Part shown: positions 20,239-49,895 of the stretch, in pieces | Numbering within the stretch: the stretch's first letter is position 1 | How the letters are laid out: every line of letters starts with the position of its first letter | Assembly (NCBI RefSeq): GCF_013167455.1 | Contig: NZ_CP038328.1 | Source: Escherichia coli O157:H7 | GTDB lineage: Bacteria; Pseudomonadota; Gammaproteobacteria; Enterobacterales; Enterobacteriaceae | DNA: 64,000 nucleotides | Direction: 5' to 3' (one strand) | The notes under the pieces: model-generated | Databases searched by the model: none | What the model saw: the letters and a program-made list of their open reading frames with translations, nothing else | Told to the model about the DNA's origin: nothing | Made by a program: the position numbers and the translations under genes

Positions 20239-20270
20239 AAAAAAACCAACCTTTACGGTTGGTTTTTTTG
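20239..20270. terminator. hairpin with A/T runs abutting attL (likely the ancestral proL terminator and yejO terminator)
   Basis: AAAAAACCAACC-ttta-cGGTTGGTTTTTTT sits 5 bp from the left direct repeat. Confidence 0.75.
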
Positions 20271-20275
20271 GGATT

Positions 20276-20292
20276 TTTGGTCGGCACGAGAG
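20276..20292. repeat. attL core (direct repeat of the tRNA-Pro 3' end)
   Basis: TTTGGTCGGCACGAGAG is identical to 29850-29866. Confidence 0.9.
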
Positions 20293-20353
20293 TAGTTTAA
20301 TTGAGTATGTAACTACATGATTTTAAATAATATGCTTGATTCAACTTTTAAAC

Positions 20354-20377
20354 CGTATAACTAAACGTATAACTAAA
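20354..20377 (+). promoter_or_regulatory. two tandem 12-bp arm-type repeats CGTATAACTAAA
   Basis: The same 12-mer occurs four more times at 29665-29720 next to the integrase gene. Typical arrangement for integrase arm-binding sites. Confidence 0.65.
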
Positions 20378-20559
20378 ATCATTTGCTGAAAAAGTGTACA
20401 ATTTAAATGCGAGTTTTCCTGTGGTAAAAGCTCCAACCGTAACGATGTTCGTTATGGTTGCCTTGATGGTCTGCGTGGTCATTATGACCATTCAGGATTT
20501 GAAGGGTGACGCTTCCGACTTCCTCAAATTGAGGTTTCCGAAAATATCAGCGGGTTAGG

Positions 20560-20633
20560 CCAGAGTGCAAATTTGCACTCTGGAACAATTCCAACCAGTA
20601 ATCAGCGCAATTTTGCGCTTTGCTTTAAGTTCA
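20560..20633. repeat. noncoding module A: 24-bp perfect palindrome plus conserved 28-mer
   Basis: CCAGAGTGCAAATTTGCACTCTGG at 20560-20583, then CGCAATTTTGCGCTTTGCTTTAAGTTCA at 20606-20633. The 28-mer is identical to 20825-20852. Confidence 0.8.
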
Positions 20634-20791
20634 GCGAGTAACCGAAGGCGGAATTACGCCCTCGGTACTCACATATGAGAAACGATATTTCTTCCACCGA
20701 TACCCTTTATTTGGGTATCGCGAGTAAGCCCCAAAATCTGGGTGTTACTCTTACTACCCAAACTACGGGTATTTTCCGTAATTTCATGGTC

Positions 20792-20852
20792 GAGTTGCAG
20801 ATCTGCAACTCACCCACCAGCCAACGCAATTTTGCGCTTTGCTTTAAGTTCA
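20792..20852. repeat. noncoding module B: 20-bp perfect palindrome plus conserved 28-mer
   Basis: GAGTTGCAGATCTGCAACTC at 20792-20811, then the 28-mer at 20825-20852. Same order as module A, 219 bp away. Confidence 0.8.
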
Positions 20853-20857
20853 ACCAG

Positions 20858-21139
20858 TTACCGCCGTAACCGCTCCGGCTTCTTCCAGTGGTACGTAATT
20901 TTTGCTTTTTCCCTGTACGTCTGCACGCGGCGACGGTAGGCCAGCATTTCAAGAACGCGGATCCGTATGTTGCGCATATCAACGCCATTAAGTTCTATAC
21001 CATCACGGCGCATCACCTCAGCAACCACACGCGCGTAATTTTCGGCGGTCACGCTGTACGGCTGCGCGGTTTTTTCGTCAGCCTGCTGGCTGATTCCGGC
21101 GACGCGGCGGATTAATCCCAGTATTTCGGCTTCTGTCAT
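20858..21139 (-). CDS. hypothetical protein (93 aa), last gene of the satellite late operon
   Basis: ATG preceded by GGTGGAG. Follows the capsid-like gene. I recognise no motif. Confidence 0.6.
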   Translation of the reverse strand: MTEAEILGLIRRVAGISQQADEKTAQPYSVTAENYARVVAEVMRRDGIELNGVDMRNIRIRVLEMLAYRRRVQTYREKAKITYHWKKPERLRR

Positions 21140-21180
21140 TTCTCCACCTGGTCAGCTATTAAACTGCGAAAATTTCGTAA

Positions 21181-22158
21181 TTATCCCGATACGGGGATCA
21201 CCATATCGGGATTGATGCCGGAAAAATCAGCTTTCGCCAGAACGGTGACGGCCTTATCGAGTTTTTGCCATCCGCAATAGGTGATTGCCCTGAACGCTGT
21301 AGCGTCATTCTGGAAAAGGCTAACCGCCCCTGATTCGGTTTTTATTACCGCCTCATCAGTTGGGGTTATAACCGTGGCTTCAACGTTAATAATCAGCTTT
21401 TGAGCGTCTATCAGCATCATGCGATCCGCCTGTTCGCTCACAATTACCGGTATTCTCAAAAGCTCTATCTGCCAGAACTCAGCATCAGTAAGCTGTAATG
21501 CGTTTTCTACGGGCAAGATTAGCGACGACGTGGAAAGCGTGTTACCGTTCGCTATGTGCTTTTTGAAAAGCTCTATGAAGTTTTCGGCCTCATCAGCACC
21601 ATTAAGCACGCCCTCAGGGGATACGCCAGCCACCTCCTGATCACTGGAAAGAAATTTTTTATCTATTTCTTTCACCGATTCCGATGTGATCAAGTCTCTG
21701 ATCGCTGAATTGGTGCCAGGGGTGCTAAATTTGATTAGCTCGTTATTCAGCATCACAATAGCGCCAAGTTTGCACAGTTTTAGCGCGCTTTCGTTTACTT
21801 CTCCCTCTTTGACAGGGATTTCTTCTGCTTCTTTAAGCCATTTACTACCCTTGCCTGATATTGACTGCAATTTTGCGCCAAACGGAAGATTAAGCGCGCT
21901 GCTGATTAGCTTGCCTGGTACAGACTGCGAAAAAATATATTCTCCAAGCTCTCTTACTATCGGCTCTGCCACCAGCGACGGCATATTATCCGTAGTCATT
22001 CCGGCAATAATGGATTTTTCAAGAAATTTCGATACTGCCGGATCATTTCTTTTCGTCATCTCTATAGCGTCTGCATGGCTGAATTTACACGATGTAAGCA
22101 CGCTGGCGGCGCGAACTGCCGAAACGCCTTTCATGTTTTTAGAAATCATCTTCTTCAT
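21181..22158 (-). CDS. HK97-fold major capsid protein homolog (Phage_capsid-like), lone copy
   Basis: 325 aa. The pattern ...W..E.EEIPV....ES.L...KLGAIV.L.NEL......IRDLI......D..FL......P.G.LNG ... IPVIVSE......LID..... ...LFQNDATAFRA... matches my recollection of the PF05065/HK97 gp5 family layout. Confidence 0.7.
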   Translation of the reverse strand: MKKMISKNMKGVSAVRAASVLTSCKFSHADAIEMTKRNDPAVSKFLEKSIIAGMTTDNMPSLVAEPIVRELGEYIFSQSVPGKLISSALNLPFGAKLQSISGKGSKWLKEAEEIPVKEGEVNESALKLCKLGAIVMLNNELIKFSTPGTNSAIRDLITSESVKEIDKKFLSSDQEVAGVSPEGVLNGADEAENFIELFKKHIANGNTLSTSSLILPVENALQLTDAEFWQIELLRIPVIVSEQADRMMLIDAQKLIINVEATVITPTDEAVIKTESGAVSLFQNDATAFRAITYCGWQKLDKAVTVLAKADFSGINPDMVIPVSG

Positions 22159-22300
22159 CCTCCTGGAAGCACGGGTTTAGTGTTTCGTGAAAATATGGCA
22201 TCAGAACAGCGGCGGCCTGTAACCGTATTTCGGTCGGCTGCTGCTTGTCGTTCATGATTTCCGTGAGTACATCAATAGGGTCTGTGATGTATTCGCTCAT
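22139..22300 (-). CDS. small protein (53 aa) with TerS C-terminal-like helix
   Basis: Not in the track (under 60 aa). ATG at 22300 with GAGG 9 nt upstream. Overlaps the capsid-like start. The motif IRLQAAAVLMPYFH resembles, from memory, a conserved C-terminal segment of small terminase proteins. Confidence 0.5.
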   Translation of the reverse strand: MSEYITDPIDVLTEIMNDKQQPTEIRLQAAAVLMPYFHETLNPCFQEDEEDDF

Positions 22301-22311
22301 AGTTCGCTACC

Positions 22312-22800
22312 TCAGTGTTTTAAGTCTGTTGGTGGCTTAGGGATGGGGAACCGATTTGAGTAGACACTAGCGGCATTGAGTTTTTTAACCTCTTTTTTCC
22401 CAATGCTGCCGATCTTGCGGTGGGTGAACTGGGCCAGCTTAAACGCGGCATCTAAAGCCAGTTTTGGATCTGTGTCCATGTTGTCAATCAGTATCCTGCC
22501 CATTGCTTTGATGGGGTCGGGTAGGCCGTTATCCATCATCTCAATGGTGTTAATTGATGCCCGTTCCGGTGTAACTTTTTCGGTAACTTTCTTTGTAACT
22601 TTTTTCGGTTTTGTAACCTGAAAAGTTACATCAGAAGTTACAGCCTTAAGATACTTTTTCACCTCAGGATCGTTGGATAGCTGCCAGCCTTTAACCCTTG
22701 CGGTCTTTTCGCTGTATCCAGCATGTATAGCGGCTTCCGTGGGATTTGCGCCCCTTGATAACGCATCAGCAAACCGCTTTTTTTTGGTCGTTAATGCCAT
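22312..22800 (-). CDS. terminase small subunit-like protein (Terminase_2-type N-terminal HTH)
   Basis: I chose the internal start MALTTKKKRFADALSRGANPTEAAIHAGYSEKTARVKGWQL (162 aa) with GAGG upstream. The N-terminus fits the TerS HTH pattern L..K...F......N...AA..AGYS..TA. Contains a KKVT repeat tract. Confidence 0.75.
   Translation of the reverse strand: MALTTKKKRFADALSRGANPTEAAIHAGYSEKTARVKGWQLSNDPEVKKYLKAVTSDVTFQVTKPKKVTKKVTEKVTPERASINTIEMMDNGLPDPIKAMGRILIDNMDTDPKLALDAAFKLAQFTHRKIGSIGKKEVKKLNAASVYSNRFPIPKPPTDLKH
22571..22641. repeat. array of GTAACTTT motifs (four direct, two inverted) inside the TerS-like gene
   Basis: GTAAC at 22571, 22583, 22595 (12-bp phasing) and 22613. Inverted GTTAC at 22625 and 22637. 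Confidence 0.8.
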
Positions 22801-22824
22801 GCAAAAACCTCGTTTTGAGGGGGT

Positions 22825-22845
22825 GTAACTTTTCGTGTAACTTTT
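22825..22845. repeat. two more GTAACTTTT motifs, 12 bp apart, in the 5' UTR of the TerS-like gene
   Basis: GTGTAACTTTT at 22823 and 22835. Noncoding, 25-45 bp upstream of the ATG at 22800. Confidence 0.8.
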
Positions 22846-22927
22846 TTGAAAAGCAAAATTTTCTACGAATGAGACGGGGGGCGGTGTCCAGGGCGATCGA
22901 CTTTCCGGCCGGAACACTCCCCCCCTG

Positions 22928-23089
22928 TCATTGCTCACCGAGTAACGAGATCAGGCCTTCAACTTCATCACTCAGCTTGTTTATTCGTGTCTCAAGCTCT
23001 GCGATCTTTTCCATCAATGGCGCTATGGTGTCTCTTGTTTCCTCGCCAATGGCTTTAATGATGCTTGCCTCGCGTTCTGTGATAGCCAT
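22928..23089 (-). CDS. small coiled-coil protein (53 aa), hypothetical
   Basis: Not in the track. ATG at 23089, sequence MAITEREASIIKAIGEETRDTIAPLMEKIAELETRINKLSDEVEGLISLLGEQ. Starts 4 bp after the stop of the preceding ORF. Confidence 0.45.
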   Translation of the reverse strand: MAITEREASIIKAIGEETRDTIAPLMEKIAELETRINKLSDEVEGLISLLGEQ

Positions 23090-23092
23090 TGT

Positions 23093-23287
23093 TTACGCCT
23101 CACTTGTTGCAATGCCCAGGCGTTCGCGTAACAGTACGCGCGCAAGATGCCCTATTGTTGGTGTTGCCGCCCTGCCGTAGATACCTGATTCATTCATCCG
23201 GCGCACAATATCGAACTGCAACTTTTTAAGCTCGTTAAGGATTTCATGATCAATCATCACGGTAGCGCTTTGCTTTATCTCTTCCAC
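23093..23287 (-). CDS. small ribbon-helix-helix-like protein (64 aa), first gene of the late operon
   Basis: GTG start with GGAG 8 nt upstream. Beta-strand TVMID followed by two helices (HEILNELKKLQFDIVRR; TIGHLARVLLRERL), suggesting an RHH fold. Confidence 0.5.
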   Translation of the reverse strand: MEEIKQSATVMIDHEILNELKKLQFDIVRRMNESGIYGRAATPTIGHLARVLLRERLGIATSEA

Positions 23288-23375
23288 TTTGTTTTCTCCA
23301 GATACTTATCATTGCATAACCAGTATTTTCGATAGATTATCATTAATTAACCATCTTTGAAGATATATGAGATCG

Positions 23376-23399
23376 AAAAAAAGCCGGATTGCTCCGGCT
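23376..23399 (-). terminator. rho-independent terminator ending the replication operon
   Basis: On the minus strand, AGCCGGA-GCAA-TCCGGCT followed by TTTTTTT. Confidence 0.8.
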
Positions 23400-23417
23400 A
23401 TGTGCTCACTTCTTCGG

Positions 23418-23657
23418 TTATTCTCCAGCGCTTTTAACGTTGATGGTTGTTACCTGTTCCGCTTCGGCAATCTCCCGTTCTGTCAGCGTGGCAAAGTTTG
23501 CCGCCGCTGTGGTCATGAATGCGCTTATCAGTTCGGGATGTGCTTTCGCATATCCTTCCCCGGCGTTGCGGTCGATGATTTTTATCGACACCCTTAACCA
23601 GTGTTCCGTCAAATCAAGGGCGTGCGATTGTGATTTTTTTGTGTGCTTCGCTGTCAT
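23418..23657 (-). CDS. hypothetical protein (79 aa)
   Basis: ORF between the origin and the terminator. No motif recognised. Confidence 0.5.
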   Translation of the reverse strand: MTAKHTKKSQSHALDLTEHWLRVSIKIIDRNAGEGYAKAHPELISAFMTTAAANFATLTEREIAEAEQVTTINVKSAGE

Positions 23658-23702
23658 AGGCTTTATCTCACAGCAGTAAATTAAAATTTTTGCGTTTTAA
23701 CC

Positions 23703-23931
23703 CTTCACCTGTTCACCTTTTGATATTTTATCTTTTAATTCATAATGTTAAGGGGTGAACAGTTTCACAAAAACTATTCACCAACTATTCACCACTGTTC
23801 ACCCTTGAAGCTCAATAAACAATCAAAAAGGTGAACAGTGAATAGTTTGGTGAACAGTTCATAAATAACTGTTCACCCTATAATATACTGATATAAAAGA
23901 TATTTATGACAGGGTGAACAGTGGTGAACAG
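23703..23931. promoter_or_regulatory. replication origin: about 11 iterons CTGTTCACC/GGTGAACAG flanking an AT-rich core
   Basis: Iterons at 23709, 23754, 23774, 23785, 23795, 23830, 23849, 23869, 23913 and 23923, plus degenerate copies. AT-rich stretch at 23880-23910. Immediately downstream of the primase-helicase gene. Confidence 0.8.
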
Positions 23932-23944
23932 TTATTCCATAAGT

Positions 23945-25762
23945 TTAATTTTTGCTATCGTCATTAGTGACCGATACACATGACGGCATCCAGTCTTCTG
24001 ATTCCTCCGTCAGTGTCACGTTTGAACGCAAACCGTGCTTCGTTTTCCGTTTCATATACTCCCTGCCATATTCCGCCATTGCCCCCGGCATATCTTTACC
24101 GAAGCGCGTCAGTGTTACAGGTTTACCGAATCCGTGTGCCCTCATATATGCCAGATAGGCGTGATAAAGATACCTGCGCGGACTGAACGGAATAATTTCG
24201 GCATTACCCACTAACAGACCATCACACATTACCGACGACATGAGATAGCCGCAGAAGTCCACCAGCGAATCGCCCTCGCGTTTTATCACCAGAGCTTCTT
24301 CTGATTTCTGCTGCTCATACAGCAGGCGTTTAGCTTCGTCCTGGTCAGAAAAACGAGTAAGCAGGTGGCGAATCACAACCGCCAGCTCTCCTTCTATTTT
24401 TTCTGCCAGCATGGGGTCGCGTTCGTTTTCCGGTACAACCTCCGAAAAATTGAATATCACCCGACGACGTGAAATCCCCCCGCTGCGGTCACTGAATGAC
24501 ATGGCGTTATTGTTCACCGCCAACACTACCGCCTGAATGCGTGTTGAGTAGGGGGCTTTATGCTTCGGGTCGATTGCCACCTTGTCACCGCCTGTAATGG
24601 CCTTAATTCCTGCGCCATCACCAGCGTAACGGGTCATATCCGGCATGATAATCAGCGAAAAGCCAACCACTAACGCGCGTTCCCTGGCATCTTCCAGCGC
24701 CTTCATGCTTGCCGATACCGTGTTGGCCTTACCCGCCAGCATGGTGCAAATCTCCGCCATCACGCTTTTACCACTTCCCCCTGGACCTGTTACCTCAATG
24801 AATAACTGCCAGTCGTACCGGTTCGCCAGCACCATGAATAATGCAGCCAGTACGCGATCCGCCTTGCGGTCATTCTCAGCCACCGAACGGCGTAACCACT
24901 TCCAGAAATTCGGCGCATGTGTTGCCAGCGTTTCCCCCTCTGCTGGTGGGCTGAAAGGTAATTCACTGGCAATTAACAACCAGTCGTTTTTGTTATGCTC
25001 CCGAAAATCGCCTGTCCGGGTATCAAAAACACCGTTACTGAATCCAATCAGGTTACGGGCTGTATTCCCCATTACAGGCAAACTTAACTTCATGGTATCG
25101 ACCGCCGATTTAATGGCGTTCTGCGAATAGCTGATCTCCGCATCAATGAAAATCTGTGCCATAGCTCGCTGTAATTCTTTATCCTGTACTGGCTCCCATA
25201 CAACGCCGTTGTAATAGTGAACAGTGTCAGAGTCAGCATGAATCGCCAGTTCACCGCCATAATGTGCCAGGAGAACTTCGCCGCGTTGACTTGCTCCCAT
25301 CTGGTTAAGCGCCAGTGATGAAGCGTTATCGTCTTTTACCCGCTCTTTTTTCTTTACAGGCAGTTCAACTACCTTTTTCTTTTCCGCCTGCTCTGCCCGT
25401 TCACGTTCCAGATATTCGCGCCAGTTCTCCCGTTTCTGGCTGTGCATTCCTTCAGGGTAATAATCAGCATCCCTGACACCTGCCGCTGCCAGTTTCTGCC
25501 CGATGGTATTAACAAGCCCCGAACGCAATAACCCCGCCTGATAGAGACGCACGCGATAGCGTCCGTCCGGTACGATTTGCAGGTTGTCCAGTTCGGCAAG
25601 TTGTTGCTCTCCAAGCCAGACAGGTGGCACGTTATCGCCAGCCAGTCGCCCGTCCTGTTCCTGCCACTGCTTCGCATGTGCCCACGCATCACTACCCGCA
25701 AAAATGATGACTTCCGTCATTTTGTCACGTGGCTGGTGTTTTAAATTTGGCGCTTTTTTCAT
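23945..25762 (-). CDS. P4 alpha-like / D5-type SF3 primase-helicase (pri-rep)
   Basis: 605 aa from the ATG at 25762 (GGAGAG upstream; ATGA overlap with the upstream ORF stop). Walker A GPGGSGKS, D5_N-like region and P4-family primase C-terminal pattern. Confidence 0.8.
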   Translation of the reverse strand: MKKAPNLKHQPRDKMTEVIIFAGSDAWAHAKQWQEQDGRLAGDNVPPVWLGEQQLAELDNLQIVPDGRYRVRLYQAGLLRSGLVNTIGQKLAAAGVRDADYYPEGMHSQKRENWREYLERERAEQAEKKKVVELPVKKKERVKDDNASSLALNQMGASQRGEVLLAHYGGELAIHADSDTVHYYNGVVWEPVQDKELQRAMAQIFIDAEISYSQNAIKSAVDTMKLSLPVMGNTARNLIGFSNGVFDTRTGDFREHNKNDWLLIASELPFSPPAEGETLATHAPNFWKWLRRSVAENDRKADRVLAALFMVLANRYDWQLFIEVTGPGGSGKSVMAEICTMLAGKANTVSASMKALEDARERALVVGFSLIIMPDMTRYAGDGAGIKAITGGDKVAIDPKHKAPYSTRIQAVVLAVNNNAMSFSDRSGGISRRRVIFNFSEVVPENERDPMLAEKIEGELAVVIRHLLTRFSDQDEAKRLLYEQQKSEEALVIKREGDSLVDFCGYLMSSVMCDGLLVGNAEIIPFSPRRYLYHAYLAYMRAHGFGKPVTLTRFGKDMPGAMAEYGREYMKRKTKHGLRSNVTLTEESEDWMPSCVSVTNDDSKN

Positions 25763-26058
25763 TTCTGCTCTCTCCACGCGGCAATCATGTTTTTCAGTTC
25801 CTGTAGTTTTTTATCAACATCCATACATGGCACATGGTTATTTCTGGAAGGCGGGATTTCCCGCCTGAATCTGCTAATAAAGATCTCCACGTTCAGCGAA
25901 CTATGAAATGAATAGCCATCACGAATAAAATACACACGGTCAAACATCAGTTCTTTTACCGTTACTCTGTTACCGTTCTTATCCAGATAAATAGCGCCGG
26001 GGATAATTTTTGGGTGTGCATAACCGCTGGCAGTCAAGCCAGATAAATATGTTCTCAT
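25759..26058 (-). CDS. hypothetical protein (99 aa), DUF4222-like pattern
   Basis: AIYLDKNGNRVTVKELMFDRVYFIRDGY fits, from memory, the Y.D..G..V.V....V.F.R.GY pattern of small enterobacterial prophage proteins. Translationally coupled to pri-rep. Confidence 0.55.
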   Translation of the reverse strand: MRTYLSGLTASGYAHPKIIPGAIYLDKNGNRVTVKELMFDRVYFIRDGYSFHSSLNVEIFISRFRREIPPSRNNHVPCMDVDKKLQELKNMIAAWREQK

Positions 26059-26064
26059 GATTAT

Positions 26065-26385
26065 TTATCCCCGATTTGAATCAGTATTCGCTTTCTTTAT
26101 GGCATTTAATGCATCTGTGGCATTTTCAATGGTGCACCGTAACGAAATATTAAACTGTCCAAGCATTGCCAGTAACAAACCGATATTACCCATATCAATG
26201 CGCATGACCTTTTCGTCATAGTCCTCATTTTCTGACGCATGCCACATCAGGCTACCAATTGACGCAACAGCCATTGATATATTGTCAGTAGCCCCATCCG
26301 CAGCGGAATAAACCTTTTTAGCAATATCATGCTCACAGTTAAAATGCGGATTAATCAGGTACTGGTAATTTGACATATCAGGCAT
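26065..26385 (-). CDS. hypothetical protein (106 aa)
   Basis: I chose the internal start MPDMSNYQ. Its ATG overlaps the stop of the Icd-like ORF (ATGCCTGA). Occupies the position P4 gives to cnr, between the immunity region and alpha. This is positional only. Confidence 0.55.
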   Translation of the reverse strand: MPDMSNYQYLINPHFNCEHDIAKKVYSAADGATDNISMAVASIGSLMWHASENEDYDEKVMRIDMGNIGLLLAMLGQFNISLRCTIENATDALNAIKKANTDSNRG

Positions 26386-26566
26386 GGCACACCCCCTGAC
26401 GAATACGGGCGGCGAATACAGCAACACAACCGGACGGGCAACGGCTACGCGCTTCGCGTTCCGTCCAGGCGGTTACGTGGATGATTTGATGTTCTGACGC
26501 GCCAAAGATGATAAAGCGCCAGAGAAAGGCGGTTTGAGAATGTACAAGGGTAGGGATAGTAGCCAT
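26378..26566 (-). CDS. Icd-like (host cell division inhibitor family) small protein, 62 aa
   Basis: Start MATIPTLVHSQTAFLWRF...TEREARSR with a strong SD GAGGAGG. The sequence pattern is recalled from Icd-like proteins annotated in P4-like islands. Confidence 0.65.
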   Translation of the reverse strand: MATIPTLVHSQTAFLWRFIIFGASEHQIIHVTAWTEREARSRCPSGCVAVFAARIRQGVCHA

Positions 26567-26935
26567 GTTGGCAGCCTCCTCAGTGTGGTTAAGATAACCG
26601 CCACCGGAAACGCCAATTTCGCTGGTGGCGGACTGTACAGGGTTGGCGTAACCGGACACTGAAGAAACCGGCGCGGATTGCTCCGCCCCCGTACAGCCCA
26701 CCATTGATAAGGTGTGACTATGCGGCACAAAAAAACACGCGGGGCGCGTGTTATGCGCTTCAGTTTTGCCCAGGACGCCAATCCCGGCACCCGTTTTATG
26801 AGGTGCGCGGGAATCATAGCTATTTTCGACACTGGCGATCAACTGGTTTTTTTCTCCGATATTCAGGGCCAGAAAACGCCACACAAAGGCCGTTTGTGTG
26901 TGTACAAGGTGTGGTATATGATTTACGGCAACCAT
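26378..26935 (-). CDS. upstream Icd-like paralog ORF (start 26935) that stays in frame through the terminator, the RNA and the second Icd-like ORF
   Basis: AGGAG SD plus ATG at 26935. The N-terminus MVAVNHIPHLVHTQTAFVWRF parallels the 62-aa ORF. There is no stop until 26378. Whether the long product is made is doubtful. Confidence 0.3.
   Translation of the reverse strand: MVAVNHIPHLVHTQTAFVWRFLALNIGEKNQLIASVENSYDSRAPHKTGAGIGVLGKTEAHNTRPACFFVPHSHTLSMVGCTGAEQSAPVSSVSGYANPVQSATSEIGVSGGGYLNHTEEAANMATIPTLVHSQTAFLWRFIIFGASEHQIIHVTAWTEREARSRCPSGCVAVFAARIRQGVCHA
26623..26702 (-). ncRNA. candidate C4/CI-type antisense immunity RNA (tRNA-like, RNase P-substrate-like)
   Basis: On the minus strand, a 16-bp closing helix GGUGGGCUGUACGGGG/CCCUGUACAGUCCGCC has 3 G-U pairs that would be A-C mismatches on the other strand. 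It is followed by 3' ACCA. Inside are a GCAA-tetraloop hairpin and a 5-bp hairpin whose 12-nt loop UUUCUUCAGUGU is complementary to the downstream SD region. Confidence 0.55.
26729..26751 (-). terminator. rho-independent terminator upstream of the candidate RNA
   Basis: On the minus strand, ACACGCG-CCC-CGCGUGU followed by UUUUUUU. Confidence 0.75.
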
Positions 26936-27008
26936 AACGGCTCCTAGTTTACGTTGTTGGTTAGAAGCCCTGCGAGTGGTAACGACACTTGCGGGGCTTT
27001 GTCTTTTC
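26929..27008 (+). ncRNA. candidate cis-antisense sRNA covering the SD/start of the upstream Icd-like ORF
   Basis: Promoter-like TTGTGT-17-TATGAT at 26894-26922. A strand-specific 14-bp hairpin at 26965-26999 has 2 G-U pairs on the plus strand only and is followed by UGUCUUUUC. Confidence 0.3.
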
Positions 27009-27026
27009 ATCGATTACCTTGATAAA

Positions 27027-27108
27027 GGTGTCAGCCACTATATTAGTAACAGGTGTCAGCCACGTCAATAGTGTTTTTCCGTTTTCTTGTGTGTATACTG
27101 TCAGCCAC
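27027..27108. promoter_or_regulatory. three direct operator repeats (G)GTGTCAGCCAC
   Basis: Copies at 27027-27038, 27052-27063 and 27099-27108. Two overlap the minus-strand early promoter and one overlaps the -10/TSS of the RHH gene promoter. Confidence 0.7.
27040..27068 (-). promoter_or_regulatory. sigma70-type early promoter of the satellite (TTGACG-17-TAATAT)
   Basis: On the minus strand, -35 TTGACG (27068-27063), a 17-bp spacer and -10 TAATAT (27045-27040). Directed toward the icd-like/pri-rep operon. Confidence 0.65.
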
Positions 27109-27129
27109 CTAATAACGAGGAAATCAGAT

Positions 27130-27309
27130 ATGGCAACAAAAGCAGTTAATGCAAAATCCAAAAAGCTTGAGGCTCGAGTACCACACGCAATAGCTGATGC
27201 TGTAGAAAATTTAAAGGAAGATGGCGAAAGTACAGGGCAATTTATCGTTTCGGCACTTGAAGGCGAGATCAAACGCCGCCAGCGCCGCAAGGCCAAAGAA
27301 TCAGAATAA
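27130..27309 (+). CDS. Arc/Mnt-like ribbon-helix-helix repressor (59 aa)
   Basis: Internal start with GAGGA SD. KKLEARVPHAIADAVENLKEDGESTGQFIVSALEGEI fits the Arc-type pattern (beta-strand ..L..R.P, helix, G.S...., helix). Divergent from the early operon. Confidence 0.65.
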   Translation: MATKAVNAKSKKLEARVPHAIADAVENLKEDGESTGQFIVSALEGEIKRRQRRKAKESE

Positions 27310-27366
27310 TCACTATCAGCGCCGTGGTGTGAGGTATTACGGCGCATTGCTATGCAGGACAACACA

Positions 27367-27540
27367 ATGACCGATAAAGAATTGACCAAAACATTATCAC
27401 CGGCACGGAAAAGACGGCGCAGAAAGATAGAGCATGAATCAGAAAGATTCGCACCATGTGCTTTTGCCCTTGAGCAATTCCTTAAAGAGTACAGGGAAAA
27501 GCGCTCATTGCAGGTATGGCAACGAACTGAACCAGACTGA
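27367..27540 (+). CDS. small arginine-rich protein (57 aa), hypothetical
   Basis: I prefer the second ATG because AGGA lies 7 nt upstream. Contains SPARKRRRRKIEHESER. Co-oriented with the RHH gene and followed by a terminator. Confidence 0.45.
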   Translation: MTDKELTKTLSPARKRRRRKIEHESERFAPCAFALEQFLKEYREKRSLQVWQRTEPD

Positions 27541-27635
27541 TTGCATTGCCCACCAGCCTGATAGCGGCTATCATCCCCGTGCTTATGTTTGGGATCACAT
27601 ACACATAAGGCGCAGCGGGTTAATTGTTCAGAAAG

Positions 27636-47324: not shown

Positions 47325-48311
47325 TTACGCGGTAGTCGCTAAACGAAGCTTCAACAGCGCGCTCTGCAAGGCATTCCAGTCAGCTTCGCTGCTGGAAATC
47401 AGCTCAATACGGCTGTCCGGTGGCGCAACGTTTTGCGTTTCAATGTGCAGGTCATCGCCCTGACGGTTGATTCGCACCAGCCCTTCGGGAATACGCAGCA
47501 CGCCTTTGACGCGTTCCACCGGTGCAAGTCGCGCCCATTCCAGAATGCCAATGGTGTCGAATACCGTATCAGCGTCGAATATCCAGCCGCAGGCCTGATG
47601 TCCTTGTCCACTGTTCAGACTGCGACGCCAGCGTTGATGCTCTGGCAGGCTTAACGCTGCTAACCCTTTTTTCACGACATGCTGATGAGAATGCGCGGCG
47701 CTGGCGGGCAACTCGGCTAAATTGTGACGCGGCAAATCCAGAAGATGACCGGCAACTTTCCCATGCTCACTGTGAATTAATTGCCGATCGCCACCATTTT
47801 GCTGCCACCAGCGCTGTAGCGCTTGCTCGCTTTCAGGTGTCGCACGGTCGGATTTATTGGCGACAATGATGTCTGCGGCAGCCAGCTGGTCACGGAAGTT
47901 TTCATTGCTGGCGCTTTTTTCGTCCAGCAGCAGGCGTGGATCGAGAATGCACAACGTGGCGCGCAGATCTATCCACGGTTCATAGACTGGTGCGGTTAAC
48001 AGATCGAGGATCTGTTTCGGATGGCCCAGCCCAGTCGGCTCTATCAACAAGCGGTCTGGTTTTCCCTGACGCAGTAAGGTATTCAACCCTACCTGCATGG
48101 GTAAACCATTAACGCAGCACATGCAGCCGCCGGGGATCTCTTTCAGCAGTGCGCCGCTATCGGCGAGCAAAGCACCATCAATTCCGACTTCCCCAAATTC
48201 ATTAACCAGTACCGCCCATTTTTCGTTGGGATCTTTATGGGCTAACAGATGAAGAATCGACGTGGTTTTCCCGCTGCCGAGAAAACCGGTGATGAGGTTG
48301 GTCCTGGTCAC
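47325..48311 (-). CDS. yeiR: COG0523 zinc-associated GTPase YeiR
   Basis: 328 aa. P-loop GFLGSGKTT and the CxCC motif GGCMCC. Confidence 0.92.
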   Translation of the reverse strand: MTRTNLITGFLGSGKTTSILHLLAHKDPNEKWAVLVNEFGEVGIDGALLADSGALLKEIPGGCMCCVNGLPMQVGLNTLLRQGKPDRLLIEPTGLGHPKQILDLLTAPVYEPWIDLRATLCILDPRLLLDEKSASNENFRDQLAAADIIVANKSDRATPESEQALQRWWQQNGGDRQLIHSEHGKVAGHLLDLPRHNLAELPASAAHSHQHVVKKGLAALSLPEHQRWRRSLNSGQGHQACGWIFDADTVFDTIGILEWARLAPVERVKGVLRIPEGLVRINRQGDDLHIETQNVAPPDSRIELISSSEADWNALQSALLKLRLATTA

Positions 48312-48428
48312 AACAGCTCCGCAATACTCTGGTAAGTTAACTGAGCGTTAATCCTGGCTAAAAACGGCAGAAAAGAGAAGGGGAGAGCGGACGAAGGCGA
48401 GCTTCATCCGCTTTAACCGCAGAAATCG

Positions 48429-49895
48429 TTAAATTTTGAGGGTGTTTAATAGCGCCTGATGCGCGCCGAATTGTGCGATTTGTTGCCGGGCTTGTTCGAT
48501 GGCCTGCACAAAATGCGGGTTATCTGGCAGATCATCACCGAAAACTTCACGCAGGGAAAGCAGGGCGGTGACGCGTTGCTCACTGATGCTGCCCGCAACA
48601 AGATCGCGAATTTTATCGCTAAGCGGATCGCGAACATCAATGGCATTTCCGGCATCATCAACGCCGCTGACGTAACGCATCCAGCCTGCAACGCCTAATG
48701 CCAGCAACGACCAGTCCGTTTCGCGCCCCAGATGTATGCGAATACCTGCCAGCATGCGTTGCGGTAATTTCTGGCTGCCATCCATCGCGATTTGCCAGGT
48801 CTTACGTTTCAGCGCCGGATTAGCAAAACGTGCAATTAACTTATCCGCATATTGTGTTAAATCGACATCTTTAATCCGCAGTGTCGGCGCTTGCTCATCC
48901 AGCATTAATGTTCTGGCGGCATGGCGAAATGCGCGATCCTGCATGCAATCACTGATATGGGCGAATCCTGAGAGGTAACCCAGATAAGCGAGAAAAGAGT
49001 GGCTGCCATTAAGCATCCGCAGTTTCATCTCTTCCCATGGCAGGACATCATTCACCATTTGTACACCTGCGACTTCCCAGGCAGGACGCCCAGCGACGAA
49101 GTTATCTTCCACCACCCACTGGATAAACGGTTCGCAGCTAATCGCGCAGGGATCATTTACCCCCAGATGCTGGCTGATTTCTGCCAGTGATTCGTCGGTT
49201 GCAGCCGGAACAATGCGGTCGACCATGGTTCCCGGAAAACTGACGTGTTCTTTTATCCACCCGGCGAGTTCTGGCGAACGTTTTTCTGCCATTCCCAGCA
49301 CCGCGTTTTTCACCACATGGCCATTGTCGGGAATATTGTCGCAGGAGAGCACGGTAAACGGTGTAAGGCCGCGCTCACGGCGGCGTTTCAGTGCTTCGAC
49401 GAGAATACCCGGTGCGGAGTGAGGTTCTTCAGGGGTTTGTAGATCGTGAATAATCCGCGGATTGCTGGTGTCGAGTGCACCGGTGGCCGGGTCAATACAA
49501 TAGCCTTTTTCGGTAATCGTCAGGGAAACAATTGCCACCTGTGGCTCGCAAAATTTCTCAATAATTGCCGCTAAGGAATCCAGTTTTGCATTCAGGCATT
49601 CGTGAACGGCACCGACAATTATCGCCTGATTGCCGTCCGCCCCTTTCTCCAGCACGGTATATAAATGGTTCTGTGCGCGGAGCTGGCTCATCAGTTGATC
49701 ACCGCTGAACAAGCTGATTTCACAGATCCCCCAGTCGCCGCCCTGGGCATTCAGCACACGATCGGTCAGTAACGCCTGATGTGCGCGGTGAAAGGCTCCA
49801 AAGCCAAAATGAACGATACGTGATTGCAACTGCTGGCGATCGTAGCGTGGAGCGTGTACATGATGCGGGAGCGTAACGGAGGCGATTGTATTCAT
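48429..49895 (-). CDS. yeiQ: mannitol dehydrogenase-family oxidoreductase YeiQ
   Basis: Internal start MNTIASVTLPHH (488 aa). GFGAFHRAHQ NAD-binding motif. Confidence 0.9.
   Translation of the reverse strand: MNTIASVTLPHHVHAPRYDRQQLQSRIVHFGFGAFHRAHQALLTDRVLNAQGGDWGICEISLFSGDQLMSQLRAQNHLYTVLEKGADGNQAIIVGAVHECLNAKLDSLAAIIEKFCEPQVAIVSLTITEKGYCIDPATGALDTSNPRIIHDLQTPEEPHSAPGILVEALKRRRERGLTPFTVLSCDNIPDNGHVVKNAVLGMAEKRSPELAGWIKEHVSFPGTMVDRIVPAATDESLAEISQHLGVNDPCAISCEPFIQWVVEDNFVAGRPAWEVAGVQMVNDVLPWEEMKLRMLNGSHSFLAYLGYLSGFAHISDCMQDRAFRHAARTLMLDEQAPTLRIKDVDLTQYADKLIARFANPALKRKTWQIAMDGSQKLPQRMLAGIRIHLGRETDWSLLALGVAGWMRYVSGVDDAGNAIDVRDPLSDKIRDLVAGSISEQRVTALLSLREVFGDDLPDNPHFVQAIEQARQQIAQFGAHQALLNTLKI

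Follow-up and report, generated by a model that had tools for sequence, protein, structure and literature searches.

The 64,000-nucleotide stretch of Escherichia coli O157:H7 DNA analysed here (contig NZ_CP038328.1; the whole stretch is called the window throughout) carries, on its minus strand and beside an intrinsic terminator, a short box, AACUGAAG, in the leader of a replication operon. This box is very probably the upstream loop-target (b1 in phage P1, part of seqA in satellite phage P4) of an antisense-RNA immunity module of the C4/CI type, residing on a P4-related satellite island. Both RNAs of the locus belong to known families, four complementarities are present, the targets co-vary with the loop and the junction of the antisense RNA, and the terminator is conserved beside the box. 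For the window, this means that the leader of the replication operon carries a complete IsrK-C4 (seqA-CI) immunity module, in which the box is one of four target sites. Knowledge of the system, from P1, P7 and P4, goes back to the 1990s, and Rfam has families for it. The box and its module are an ordinary member of this well-described system and in that sense already known.

The elements of the module are listed below in the order in which they would be transcribed.

26806-26730, minus strand: IsrK-like leader/short RNA (the "seqA RNA" of P4); Rfam isrK RF01394, scoring 66 bits (gathering score 50) over all 77 model positions.
26781-26775, minus strand: site a1, UUGGCGU, in the loop of IsrK hairpin 2; pairs with the C4 junction ACGCCAA, -11.9 kcal/mol.
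26765-26758, minus strand: box AACUGAAG of the b1/seqA type; able to pair with the C4 loop core CUUCAGU, co-varying with the loop over 29 loop types.
26752-26729, minus strand: intrinsic terminator with an 8-bp stem, CCC loop and U-run; 8 pairs, 5 of them G-C, in the consensus scan.
26708-26621, minus strand: C4/CI-type antisense RNA; Rfam C4 RF01695, scoring 77.6 bits (gathering score 45) over all 87 model positions.
26616-26610, minus strand: site a2, UUGGCGU, beginning 5 nt past the 3' end of the C4 match; pairs with the junction ACGCCAA, -10.8 kcal/mol.
26586-26575, minus strand: box ACACUGAGGAGG of the b2/seqC type, overlying the Shine-Dalgarno sequence of the icd/kil-like gene; loop duplex -15.0 kcal/mol.

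The C4 RNA has the layout of its family. A long closing stem is followed by hairpin 1, by hairpin 2 (GCCGG-UUUCUUCAGUGU-CCGGU), whose 12-nt loop UUUCUUCAGUGU lies at 26667-26656, and by the single-stranded junction ACGCCAA (26649-26643). The minimum free energy (MFE) structure, at -46.9 kcal/mol, reproduces the Rfam consensus, including the two enclosed hairpins, the exposed loop of about 12 nt and the junction. The IsrK-like RNA consists of hairpin 1, hairpin 2 displaying a1, a linker that bears the box, and the terminator with its U-tail. In its MFE fold hairpin 1 and the terminator are formed and the box is unpaired. Judged from the sequence, the short IsrK-like RNA would end at this terminator, which corresponds to the one that follows seqA in P4.

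The box had been singled out in an earlier reading of the DNA made without database searches (the sequence-only reading). Recalculation of the coordinates showed that the box had been placed correctly, and reading the sequence confirmed that ACUGAAG (26764-26758, minus strand) is the exact complement of the loop core CUUCAGU (26664-26658), as had been claimed. The terminator described beside it exists and is also returned by the terminator scan. Its 5' arm is AACACGCG (26752-26745), its loop CCC (26744-26742) and its 3' arm CGCGUGUU (26741-26734), the T-run ends at 26729, and the hairpin energy is -9.7 kcal/mol. The U7 tail given for it was one too long: 6 U follow the 7-bp stem as it was then written, and the seventh is the last U of the stem. 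The gap between box and terminator stem, given as 7 nt, is 6 nt (CGCAUA on the minus strand). The box had further been located within a leader of about 300 nt; the promoter-like site at 26842-26813 (see below) would put it about 42-49 nt into the short IsrK-like RNA and not deep in the leader. Relative to a1 and the terminator, the box occupies the position of b1 in P1 and of the seqA box UUCACAGG in P4.

The downstream box ACACUGAGGAGG pairs with all 12 bases of the C4 loop through 9 Watson-Crick and 3 G-U pairs. The flanking of the RNA by one target at a terminator and another on a Shine-Dalgarno sequence, proposed earlier as a seqA/seqB/seqC-like geometry, is therefore present. A second complementary pair, absent from the earlier account, is formed by the junction ACGCCAA with UUGGCGU both upstream and downstream of C4. 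On the targets the junction-complement precedes the loop-complement, which is the order expected because C4 pairing is antiparallel. The order of sites in the window, a1-b1-c4-a2-b2-icd, is the order annotated in phage P1. As in a P1-type immI region, target pairs lie both upstream and downstream of C4, and the downstream b site is on the ribosome binding site (RBS) of an icd-like gene, whose ATG is at 26566.

To follow the sites through homologs, IMG/VR was scanned with the constant portions of the junction and of C4 hairpin 2, the loop being left free. The scan returned 120 loci; the homolog set comprised 100 unique loci (denoted by L-numbers), with 29 distinct loops once P1, P4 and the window were included. 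Nearly every loop in the 100 unique loci has two matching boxes, and the few apparent exceptions pair via G-U. The upstream box is a perfect complement of 8-9 nt at a fixed offset of -91 to -96 or -134/-135 from the hairpin. The downstream box is a complement of 9-10 nt at +87/88 and ends in the Shine-Dalgarno sequence. Cognate and non-cognate pairings were compared for each target over the 29 loops, as follows.

Upstream target: cognate best for 24 of 29 loops; mean duplex energy -12.5 kcal/mol for cognate against -7.4 kcal/mol for non-cognate pairings.
Downstream target: cognate best for 27 of 29 loops; mean duplex energy -14.1 kcal/mol for cognate against -6.7 kcal/mol for non-cognate pairings.

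For either target 0 of 20,000 permutations reach the observed mean, a figure that is not a true probability, the sequences being related. Co-variation of both boxes with the loop had been named beforehand as the test on which the proposal could fall; when run on the 29 loop classes, it was passed. The junction behaves in the same way. It is mostly ACGCCAA, and where it differs (L025, L054, L109, P1 and P4) both a-sites change to match, as with GUUCCAA and UUGGAAC in L054 or ACGCUAA and UUAGCGU in L025. In a close relative, L015, the backbone is 84% identical to that of the window, and the differences cluster in b1, the loop and b2.

A terminator is found within a few nucleotides 3' of the box in 27 of the 29 loop classes. 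The stems vary among classes (GACGCG, AACCGC, AACACGCG, AGCCGC), and because they differ it is the hairpin rather than its sequence that is maintained. The two classes outside this count are P1, which has a hairpin with a longer loop that the scan did not count, and L025, which is without a terminator. The homolog set also contains a second architecture (L010, L012, L016, L018, L029, L042, L074 and others), in which about 40 additional nucleotides lie between the IsrK terminator and C4. The insert has a conserved CACCC-TTTTTT-(C/G)GGCG segment, and the box is at -134 instead of -95.

The triplet of loop and boxes sets immunity specificity and, for this reason, varies strongly between elements. 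Three IMG/VR contigs (L013, L047, L088) carry two C4 modules with different loops, each with its own matching boxes; the loops are GTTCTCTTGCGA and GTTCTATTGTGA in L088, and TTTCCTTGATCG and GTTCTATGTTGA in L013. These contigs may represent tandem or co-resident elements of differing immunity type. The specificity types, at least 29 in number and with loop, upstream box and Shine-Dalgarno box changing together, form a natural set that could be used for the design of orthogonal RNA repressors and for the typing of satellite and prophage immunity groups.

Taken within the window by itself, the match between box and loop is only suggestive. The heptamer ACTGAAG occurs 11 times on both strands of the window, compared with 5.6 +/- 2.4 in shuffles, and a copy would fall on the right strand in a stretch of some 300 nt with a probability of roughly 2-3%. 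Such counts would allow a fortuitous 7-mer match without function. The box nevertheless goes beyond chance because the homologs show co-variation with the loop, and a chance match was rejected on this ground. Its position is fixed over the 29 loop classes, and the same site is annotated in P1 and present in P4, which leaves coincidence a negligible probability.

Conservation through a protein was also weighed. An eta-like nested frame of 210 amino acids (aa) on the minus strand, 27010-26378, runs through IsrK and C4 into icd/kil, and the box could in principle be kept by this eta/Ash-like frame and not by RNA pairing. Of 94 loci, 76 have this frame open across the RNA region (the other two frames: 28 and 3), and the frame matches Pfam Phage_ASH with 62 bits at aa 65-158. 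That match coincides exactly with the IsrK and C4 elements, and the protein family may partly reflect conservation of the RNA. The box is moreover hypervariable and changes together with the loop and b2, two sites 90-180 nt away, which a protein constraint does not predict. We regard this explanation as very improbable. Three separate sites that track one another over 29 states leave no room for either chance or a protein-coding explanation.

The putative start of the short RNA is a promoter-like site, TTGATC-18 nt-TATGAT (26842-26813, minus strand; consensus scan), directly 5' of the IsrK-like RNA. A distance of 32 nt separates the last base of its -10 hexamer from the first base of a1, the same as between the annotated P1c4 -10 (48218-48223) and a1 (48255) in P1; homologs have TTGATT...TACACT at this place. 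By position, this promoter-like site would correspond to PLE of P4 and to promoter P1c4 of P1. Transcription from it would yield an IsrK-like RNA with a1 in hairpin 2, the box in the linker and then the terminator. Read-through transcripts would contain the C4 RNA, followed by a2, b2, the icd/kil-like gene and the replication genes. In P1 and P4 the C4/CI RNA is cut out of the leader.

By analogy with P1, P4 and Gifsy-1, it is likely that C4 would pair with a2/b2 through its loop and junction, that translation of icd/kil would be blocked, and that the replication operon would be turned off by polarity, resulting in immunity. Pairing of C4 with a1/b1 on the nascent leader could increase termination at the adjacent terminator, by which C4 would limit its own synthesis; we lean slightly towards this step. 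It has a model in P4, where a Rho-independent terminator (t1) between PLE and cI is reported to be efficient only with both CI RNA and seqA, in vitro as well, and to serve CI autoregulation. Genetically, seqA and seqC are both said to be targets of CI, single mutants being immunity-sensitive and double mutants virulent. Finally, the short IsrK-like RNA with its a1/b1 might titrate or compete for C4, opening the icd/kil RBS, as has been demonstrated for IsrK of Gifsy-1; here the balance is even. The decoy step and the step in which C4 raises termination are not exclusive and can coexist.

The fold predicted for the read-through transcript bears on how the upstream sites act. In the predicted MFE structure of the 252-nt read-through RNA, a1/b1 is paired in cis with the loop and junction of C4, which agrees with "structure A" of the Gifsy-1 isrK-orf45 RNA (PMC4825925). 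This prediction, together with the compensatory mutants that back "structure A" in Gifsy-1 (PMC4825925), could mean that a1/b1 is a guide for folding or processing, which pairs with C4 in cis and holds the precursor fold until processing of the RNase P/RNase E type or release, the terminator being incidental. The fold of C4 on its own is, however, very stable, and its form is conserved in Rfam. The reported P4 genetics, moreover, has seqA as an immunity target in trans. A purely cis-acting role of this kind thus appears unlikely.

The same cis pairing would suit a mechanism in which the terminator merely defines a short trans-acting RNA and C4 is without effect on termination. The short RNA would then use the box and a1 to bind the C4 element of the read-through transcript, or free C4, and open the icd/kil RBS. 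The full-length match of the window to the isrK model, including terminator and U-tail, would fit with this. The reported dependence of termination on CI RNA and seqA in P4 speaks against it, and it leaves the closeness of terminator and box in 27 of 29 classes unexplained. Support for it comes from Gifsy-1, where mutational and compensatory data show that short IsrK binds in trans and activates orf45/anrP translation (PMC4825925); on the other side, nucleotides 47-60 of Gifsy-1 IsrK lack complementarity to orf45 (PMC4825925). We consider a mechanism confined to this activating role possible, somewhat short of an even chance. It is compatible with, and not exclusive of, the explanation preferred here, in which the box is a loop-target of a C4/CI-type immunity module.

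The closeness of box and terminator could have a further cause. When nascent RNA is folded up to the terminator loop, a small hairpin appears at the junction of box and terminator in almost every class, the strongest being those of P1 and L109. In it the 3'-terminal base or bases of the box and the 3-4 nt that follow pair with the terminator loop and the adjoining end of the 5' arm. In the window this candidate alternative hairpin (26758-26744, minus strand) would pair GCGC at 26758-26755, beginning with the last base of the box, with GCGC at 26747-26744. It would use the end of the 5' arm of the terminator and the first base of its loop, and is mutually exclusive with the top of the terminator. 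The predicted pairings (RNAfold in the window) are given below.

Window: GCGC/GCGC, -5.7 kcal/mol, 3 of 8 terminator-arm bases engaged.
P4: GGCG/CGCC, -5.7 kcal/mol, 3 of 6 terminator-arm bases engaged.
L013b and L055b: GAGC/GCUC, -5.4 kcal/mol, 1 of 7 terminator-arm bases engaged.
L072: AACGC/GCGUU, -5.1 kcal/mol, 2 of 6 terminator-arm bases engaged.
P1 (L121 18274-18288): UGCGG/CCGCA, -7.0 kcal/mol, 5 of 6 terminator-arm bases engaged.
L109: GGCGG/CCGCC, -9.5 kcal/mol, 4 of 6 terminator-arm bases engaged.

Such a hairpin of 4-5 bp would delay folding of the terminator, and C4 bound to the box would prevent the hairpin and free the terminator. The closeness of box and terminator would then reflect a shared RNA-gated switch, an intrinsic terminator that depends on a trans-acting RNA without a protein factor. 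This model is doubtful, and the alternative hairpin as an explanation of RNA-dependent termination is a lead, not a finding. To our knowledge such a switch has not been described across the family and is possibly new. If it were true, each of the dozens of immunity types would have a private RNA-gated terminator, because the box is hypervariable. It would also offer a testable explanation for increased termination at an intrinsic terminator under the influence of an antisense RNA.

Several points weigh against these readings. For the module itself, the duplex between loop and b1 in the window is short (7 Watson-Crick pairs) and, at -8.8 kcal/mol, among the weakest of the 29 classes, being similar to that of P1 (-8.7). 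The region 26819-26767 scores 21.2 bits on Rfam c4-a1b1 (RF03163), under the gathering score of 46.7, and the window was rejected as a member of that family. The shortfall sits in the -10/5' segment and in hairpin 1; the a1 hairpin aligns, and it and the b1 logic are present nonetheless. Promoter, C4 processing and an RNA end at the terminator are predictions for this locus. For the switch, the alternative hairpin is small and overlaps only 3 of the 8 terminator-arm bases in the window, and cognate pairs of 5' segment and terminator have a modest folding advantage over chimeras (-5.70 as opposed to -5.07 kcal/mol; the observed mean was reached in 272 of 20,000 permutations). No strict column co-variation for the hairpin was seen in an alignment of 30 sequences, its partners lying in differing registers in each class, and because the registers differ a single consensus structure cannot be written. 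IsrK toxicity in Gifsy-1 persisted when STnc1160 was co-expressed constitutively, which runs contrary to the suggestion of the authors that IsrK inactivates an STnc1160 termination factor (PMC4825925).

The module lies in an island whose features are as follows.

20269-29928: P4-related island of 9.6 kb at tRNA-Pro(GGG), bounded by tRNA 3'-end repeats (20269-20300 and 29843-29874).
28392-29651: integrase.
27072-27026, minus strand: upstream promoter-like site (27068-27040; scan) in GTGGCTGACAC repeats, repeat family D9.
26566-26378, minus strand: icd/kil-like small open reading frame (ORF) of 62 aa; first gene to be translated after the RNA, with the replication genes next.
23945-25777: P4 alpha-like D5-type primase-helicase, 51% identity to P4 alpha (452 aa).

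The tRNA-Pro 3'-end repeats at the island ends are imperfect (81% over 32 nt). Just inside the ends is a perfect 26-nt direct repeat, CCGTATAACTAAACGTATAACTAAAA (20353-20378 and 29696-29721), the copies of which are probably arm-type sites of the integrase. Other island genes encode a DUF4222 protein, a small terminase subunit and a capsid-like protein. The ORFs 3' of the icd/kil-like gene are a 120-aa protein without a Pfam match, the DUF4222 protein and the D5-type primase-helicase. GGTGAACAGT repeats, direct and as an inverted pair, are clustered at 23754-23937, immediately 3' of the primase-helicase ORF; they are likely the replication origin (iterons) of the island. The region is 95.9% identical to an island in E. 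coli NCTC9112, situated between yejM/tRNA-Pro and a satellite-type gene run, and leader-like sequence is found in 1,896 of 5,426 complete E. coli genomes. The icd/kil-like ORF aligns with the kil region of P4, and the E. coli locus of 95.9% identity annotates a "host cell division inhibitor Icd-like protein" in its place.

Upstream of the module, the second promoter-like site (27068-27040) faces a divergent YlcI/YnfO-like gene (27130-27309, plus strand) and is possibly the counterpart of P4 PLL. It is surrounded by copies of AGGTGTCAGCCAC, two in tandem (27026-27047 and 27051-27072) and a third seen by eye near 27097-27106. Lying between the YlcI/YnfO-like gene and the leader, these copies look like candidate operators for some regulator. 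Between this promoter-like site and an ATG at 26934 there is a hairpin with a 15-bp stem (GAAGCCCTGCGAGTGG...CTTGCGGGGCTTT, 26964-27000), which is terminator-like with a weak T-tail on the plus strand and without a U-run on the minus strand. At 26934-26860 on the minus strand, the start of the upstream ORF, MVAVNHIPHLVHTQTAFVWRF..., resembles that of the icd/kil-like ORF, MATIPTLVHSQTAFLWRF..., and is provided with an AGGAG similar to a Shine-Dalgarno sequence. Its appearance is that of a partially duplicated icd/kil 5' end placed ahead of the RNA module; in the E. coli homolog the annotation is a truncated Icd-like pseudogene. RefSeq annotates parts of the 210-aa frame as "ash family protein" and as partial "Icd-like" pseudogenes, calls that overlie the RNA genes of this region and constitute an annotation problem.

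More broadly, the result is confirmatory, the system having been described already. The c4 and c4-a1b1 motifs were listed by Weinberg et al. 2010 (PMC2864571), and the correspondence of IsrK to seqA and of C4 to CI RNA has been published (Barquist 2013; Hershko-Shalev 2016). The isrK-C4 module is also found in Stx and other lambdoid phages. By similarity the IsrK-C4 stretch occurs in 319 phage records, one of which has adjacent annotations for "C4 antisense RNA" and "isrK Hfq binding RNA". A literature search for this module in surveys of phage-inducible chromosomal islands (PICI) and satellites gave nothing relevant.

The Gifsy-1 IsrK locus and the window share their organization: a short RNA ends at its own terminator, the read-through transcript carries a C4-like element, and IsrK is complementary to that element. 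In Gifsy-1, short IsrK stops at its own terminator and read-through gives the isrK-orf45-anrP mRNA; pairing of IsrK with the downstream element, in cis as well as in trans, is backed by compensatory mutants, and STnc1160, of about 80 nt, is processed from the read-through transcript (Hershko-Shalev et al. 2016, PMC4825925). The same authors describe IsrK as a structural homolog of the P4 seqA RNA, liken STnc1160 to CI and suggest that it might act in the manner of CI at the IsrK terminator (PMC4825925). The published Gifsy-1 model stresses activation by short IsrK, not repression by the C4-like RNA (PMC4825925). In Gifsy-1 the module regulates an antirepressor and has indirect control over the antiterminator AntQ, whereas that of the window precedes a P4-type replication operon.

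Between P1 and the window the order of sites is identical and the spacing nearly so. The GenBank annotation of P1 gives a1 at 48255-48261, b1 at 48269-48276, c4 at 48343-48419, a2 at 48423-48429, b2 at 48452-48459 and icd from 48470. In P1, a1 and b1 are 7 nt apart, c4 lies 66 nt past b1, a2 lies 3 nt past c4, and b2 ends 10 nt before the icd ATG. The b1 of P1 (GUUAGUG) likewise has 7 nt, with a terminator-like hairpin after it, and the gene after b2 is Icd-like in both. The loop has 11 nt in P1 and 12 nt in the window. The P1 c4 region matches the Rfam C4 model; upstream of it, P1 exceeds the threshold for c4-a1b1 (51 bits) and falls below that for isrK (35 bits), whereas in the window the reverse is true. 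The downstream cargo differs as well, being the antirepressor (ant) in P1 and the replication operon in the window; no Ant or KilA domain was found in the window ORFs 3' of the icd/kil-like gene.

The closest comparison is with P4. The sequence-only reading held that the sequences were unrelated to P4, which is wrong: P4 itself matches the same two Rfam models, and an arrangement analogous but unrelated to that of P4 was rejected. The P4 CI RNA (NC_001609 8507-8420) scores 74.9 bits on C4, compared with 77.6 for the window, and seqA with its terminator (8692-8615) scores 60.8 bits on isrK, compared with 66; on the c4-a1b1 model P4 has 44.1 bits and the window 21.2. The layout is also that of the window, with box UUCACAGG, 8 nt, a terminator, CI, a2, and a box that lies on the Shine-Dalgarno sequence of a kil/icd-like gene of 65 aa. 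The spacer from terminator to RNA is 118 nt in P4, against 30 nt to the C4 ATGG motif in the window. The P4 loop UAUCCUGUGAAG has its complements in UUCACAGG, ahead of the terminator, and in UUCACAGGAGG, on the Shine-Dalgarno sequence of the kil-type ORF of 65 aa; for the junction UUCUCAC the complement is GUGAGAA on both sides. Specificity thus differs, the window having loop UUUCUUCAGUGU and junction ACGCCAA in their place.

The surroundings agree in part. In both the window island and P4 an integrase adjoins a tRNA gene. The primase-helicase of the window matches P4 alpha with E = 1e-162 and is without similarity to its N-terminal 320 aa. Nested eta/kil genes are reported for P4, and the open frame through the RNA region of the window is 32% identical to the corresponding frame of P4 (E = 1e-7). 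The small terminase subunit and the capsid-like gene of the window island are both without an annotated counterpart in the P4 record. None of sid, delta and psu was among the ten ORFs scanned in the window, a scan that was not a dedicated or exhaustive search for them. The window contains a homologous RNA with an upstream target, targets that co-vary with the RNA, and a module placed in the leader of an alpha-type operon with nested eta/kil-like frames. On sequence grounds, therefore, the window holds the P4 immunity module itself, with a different specificity.

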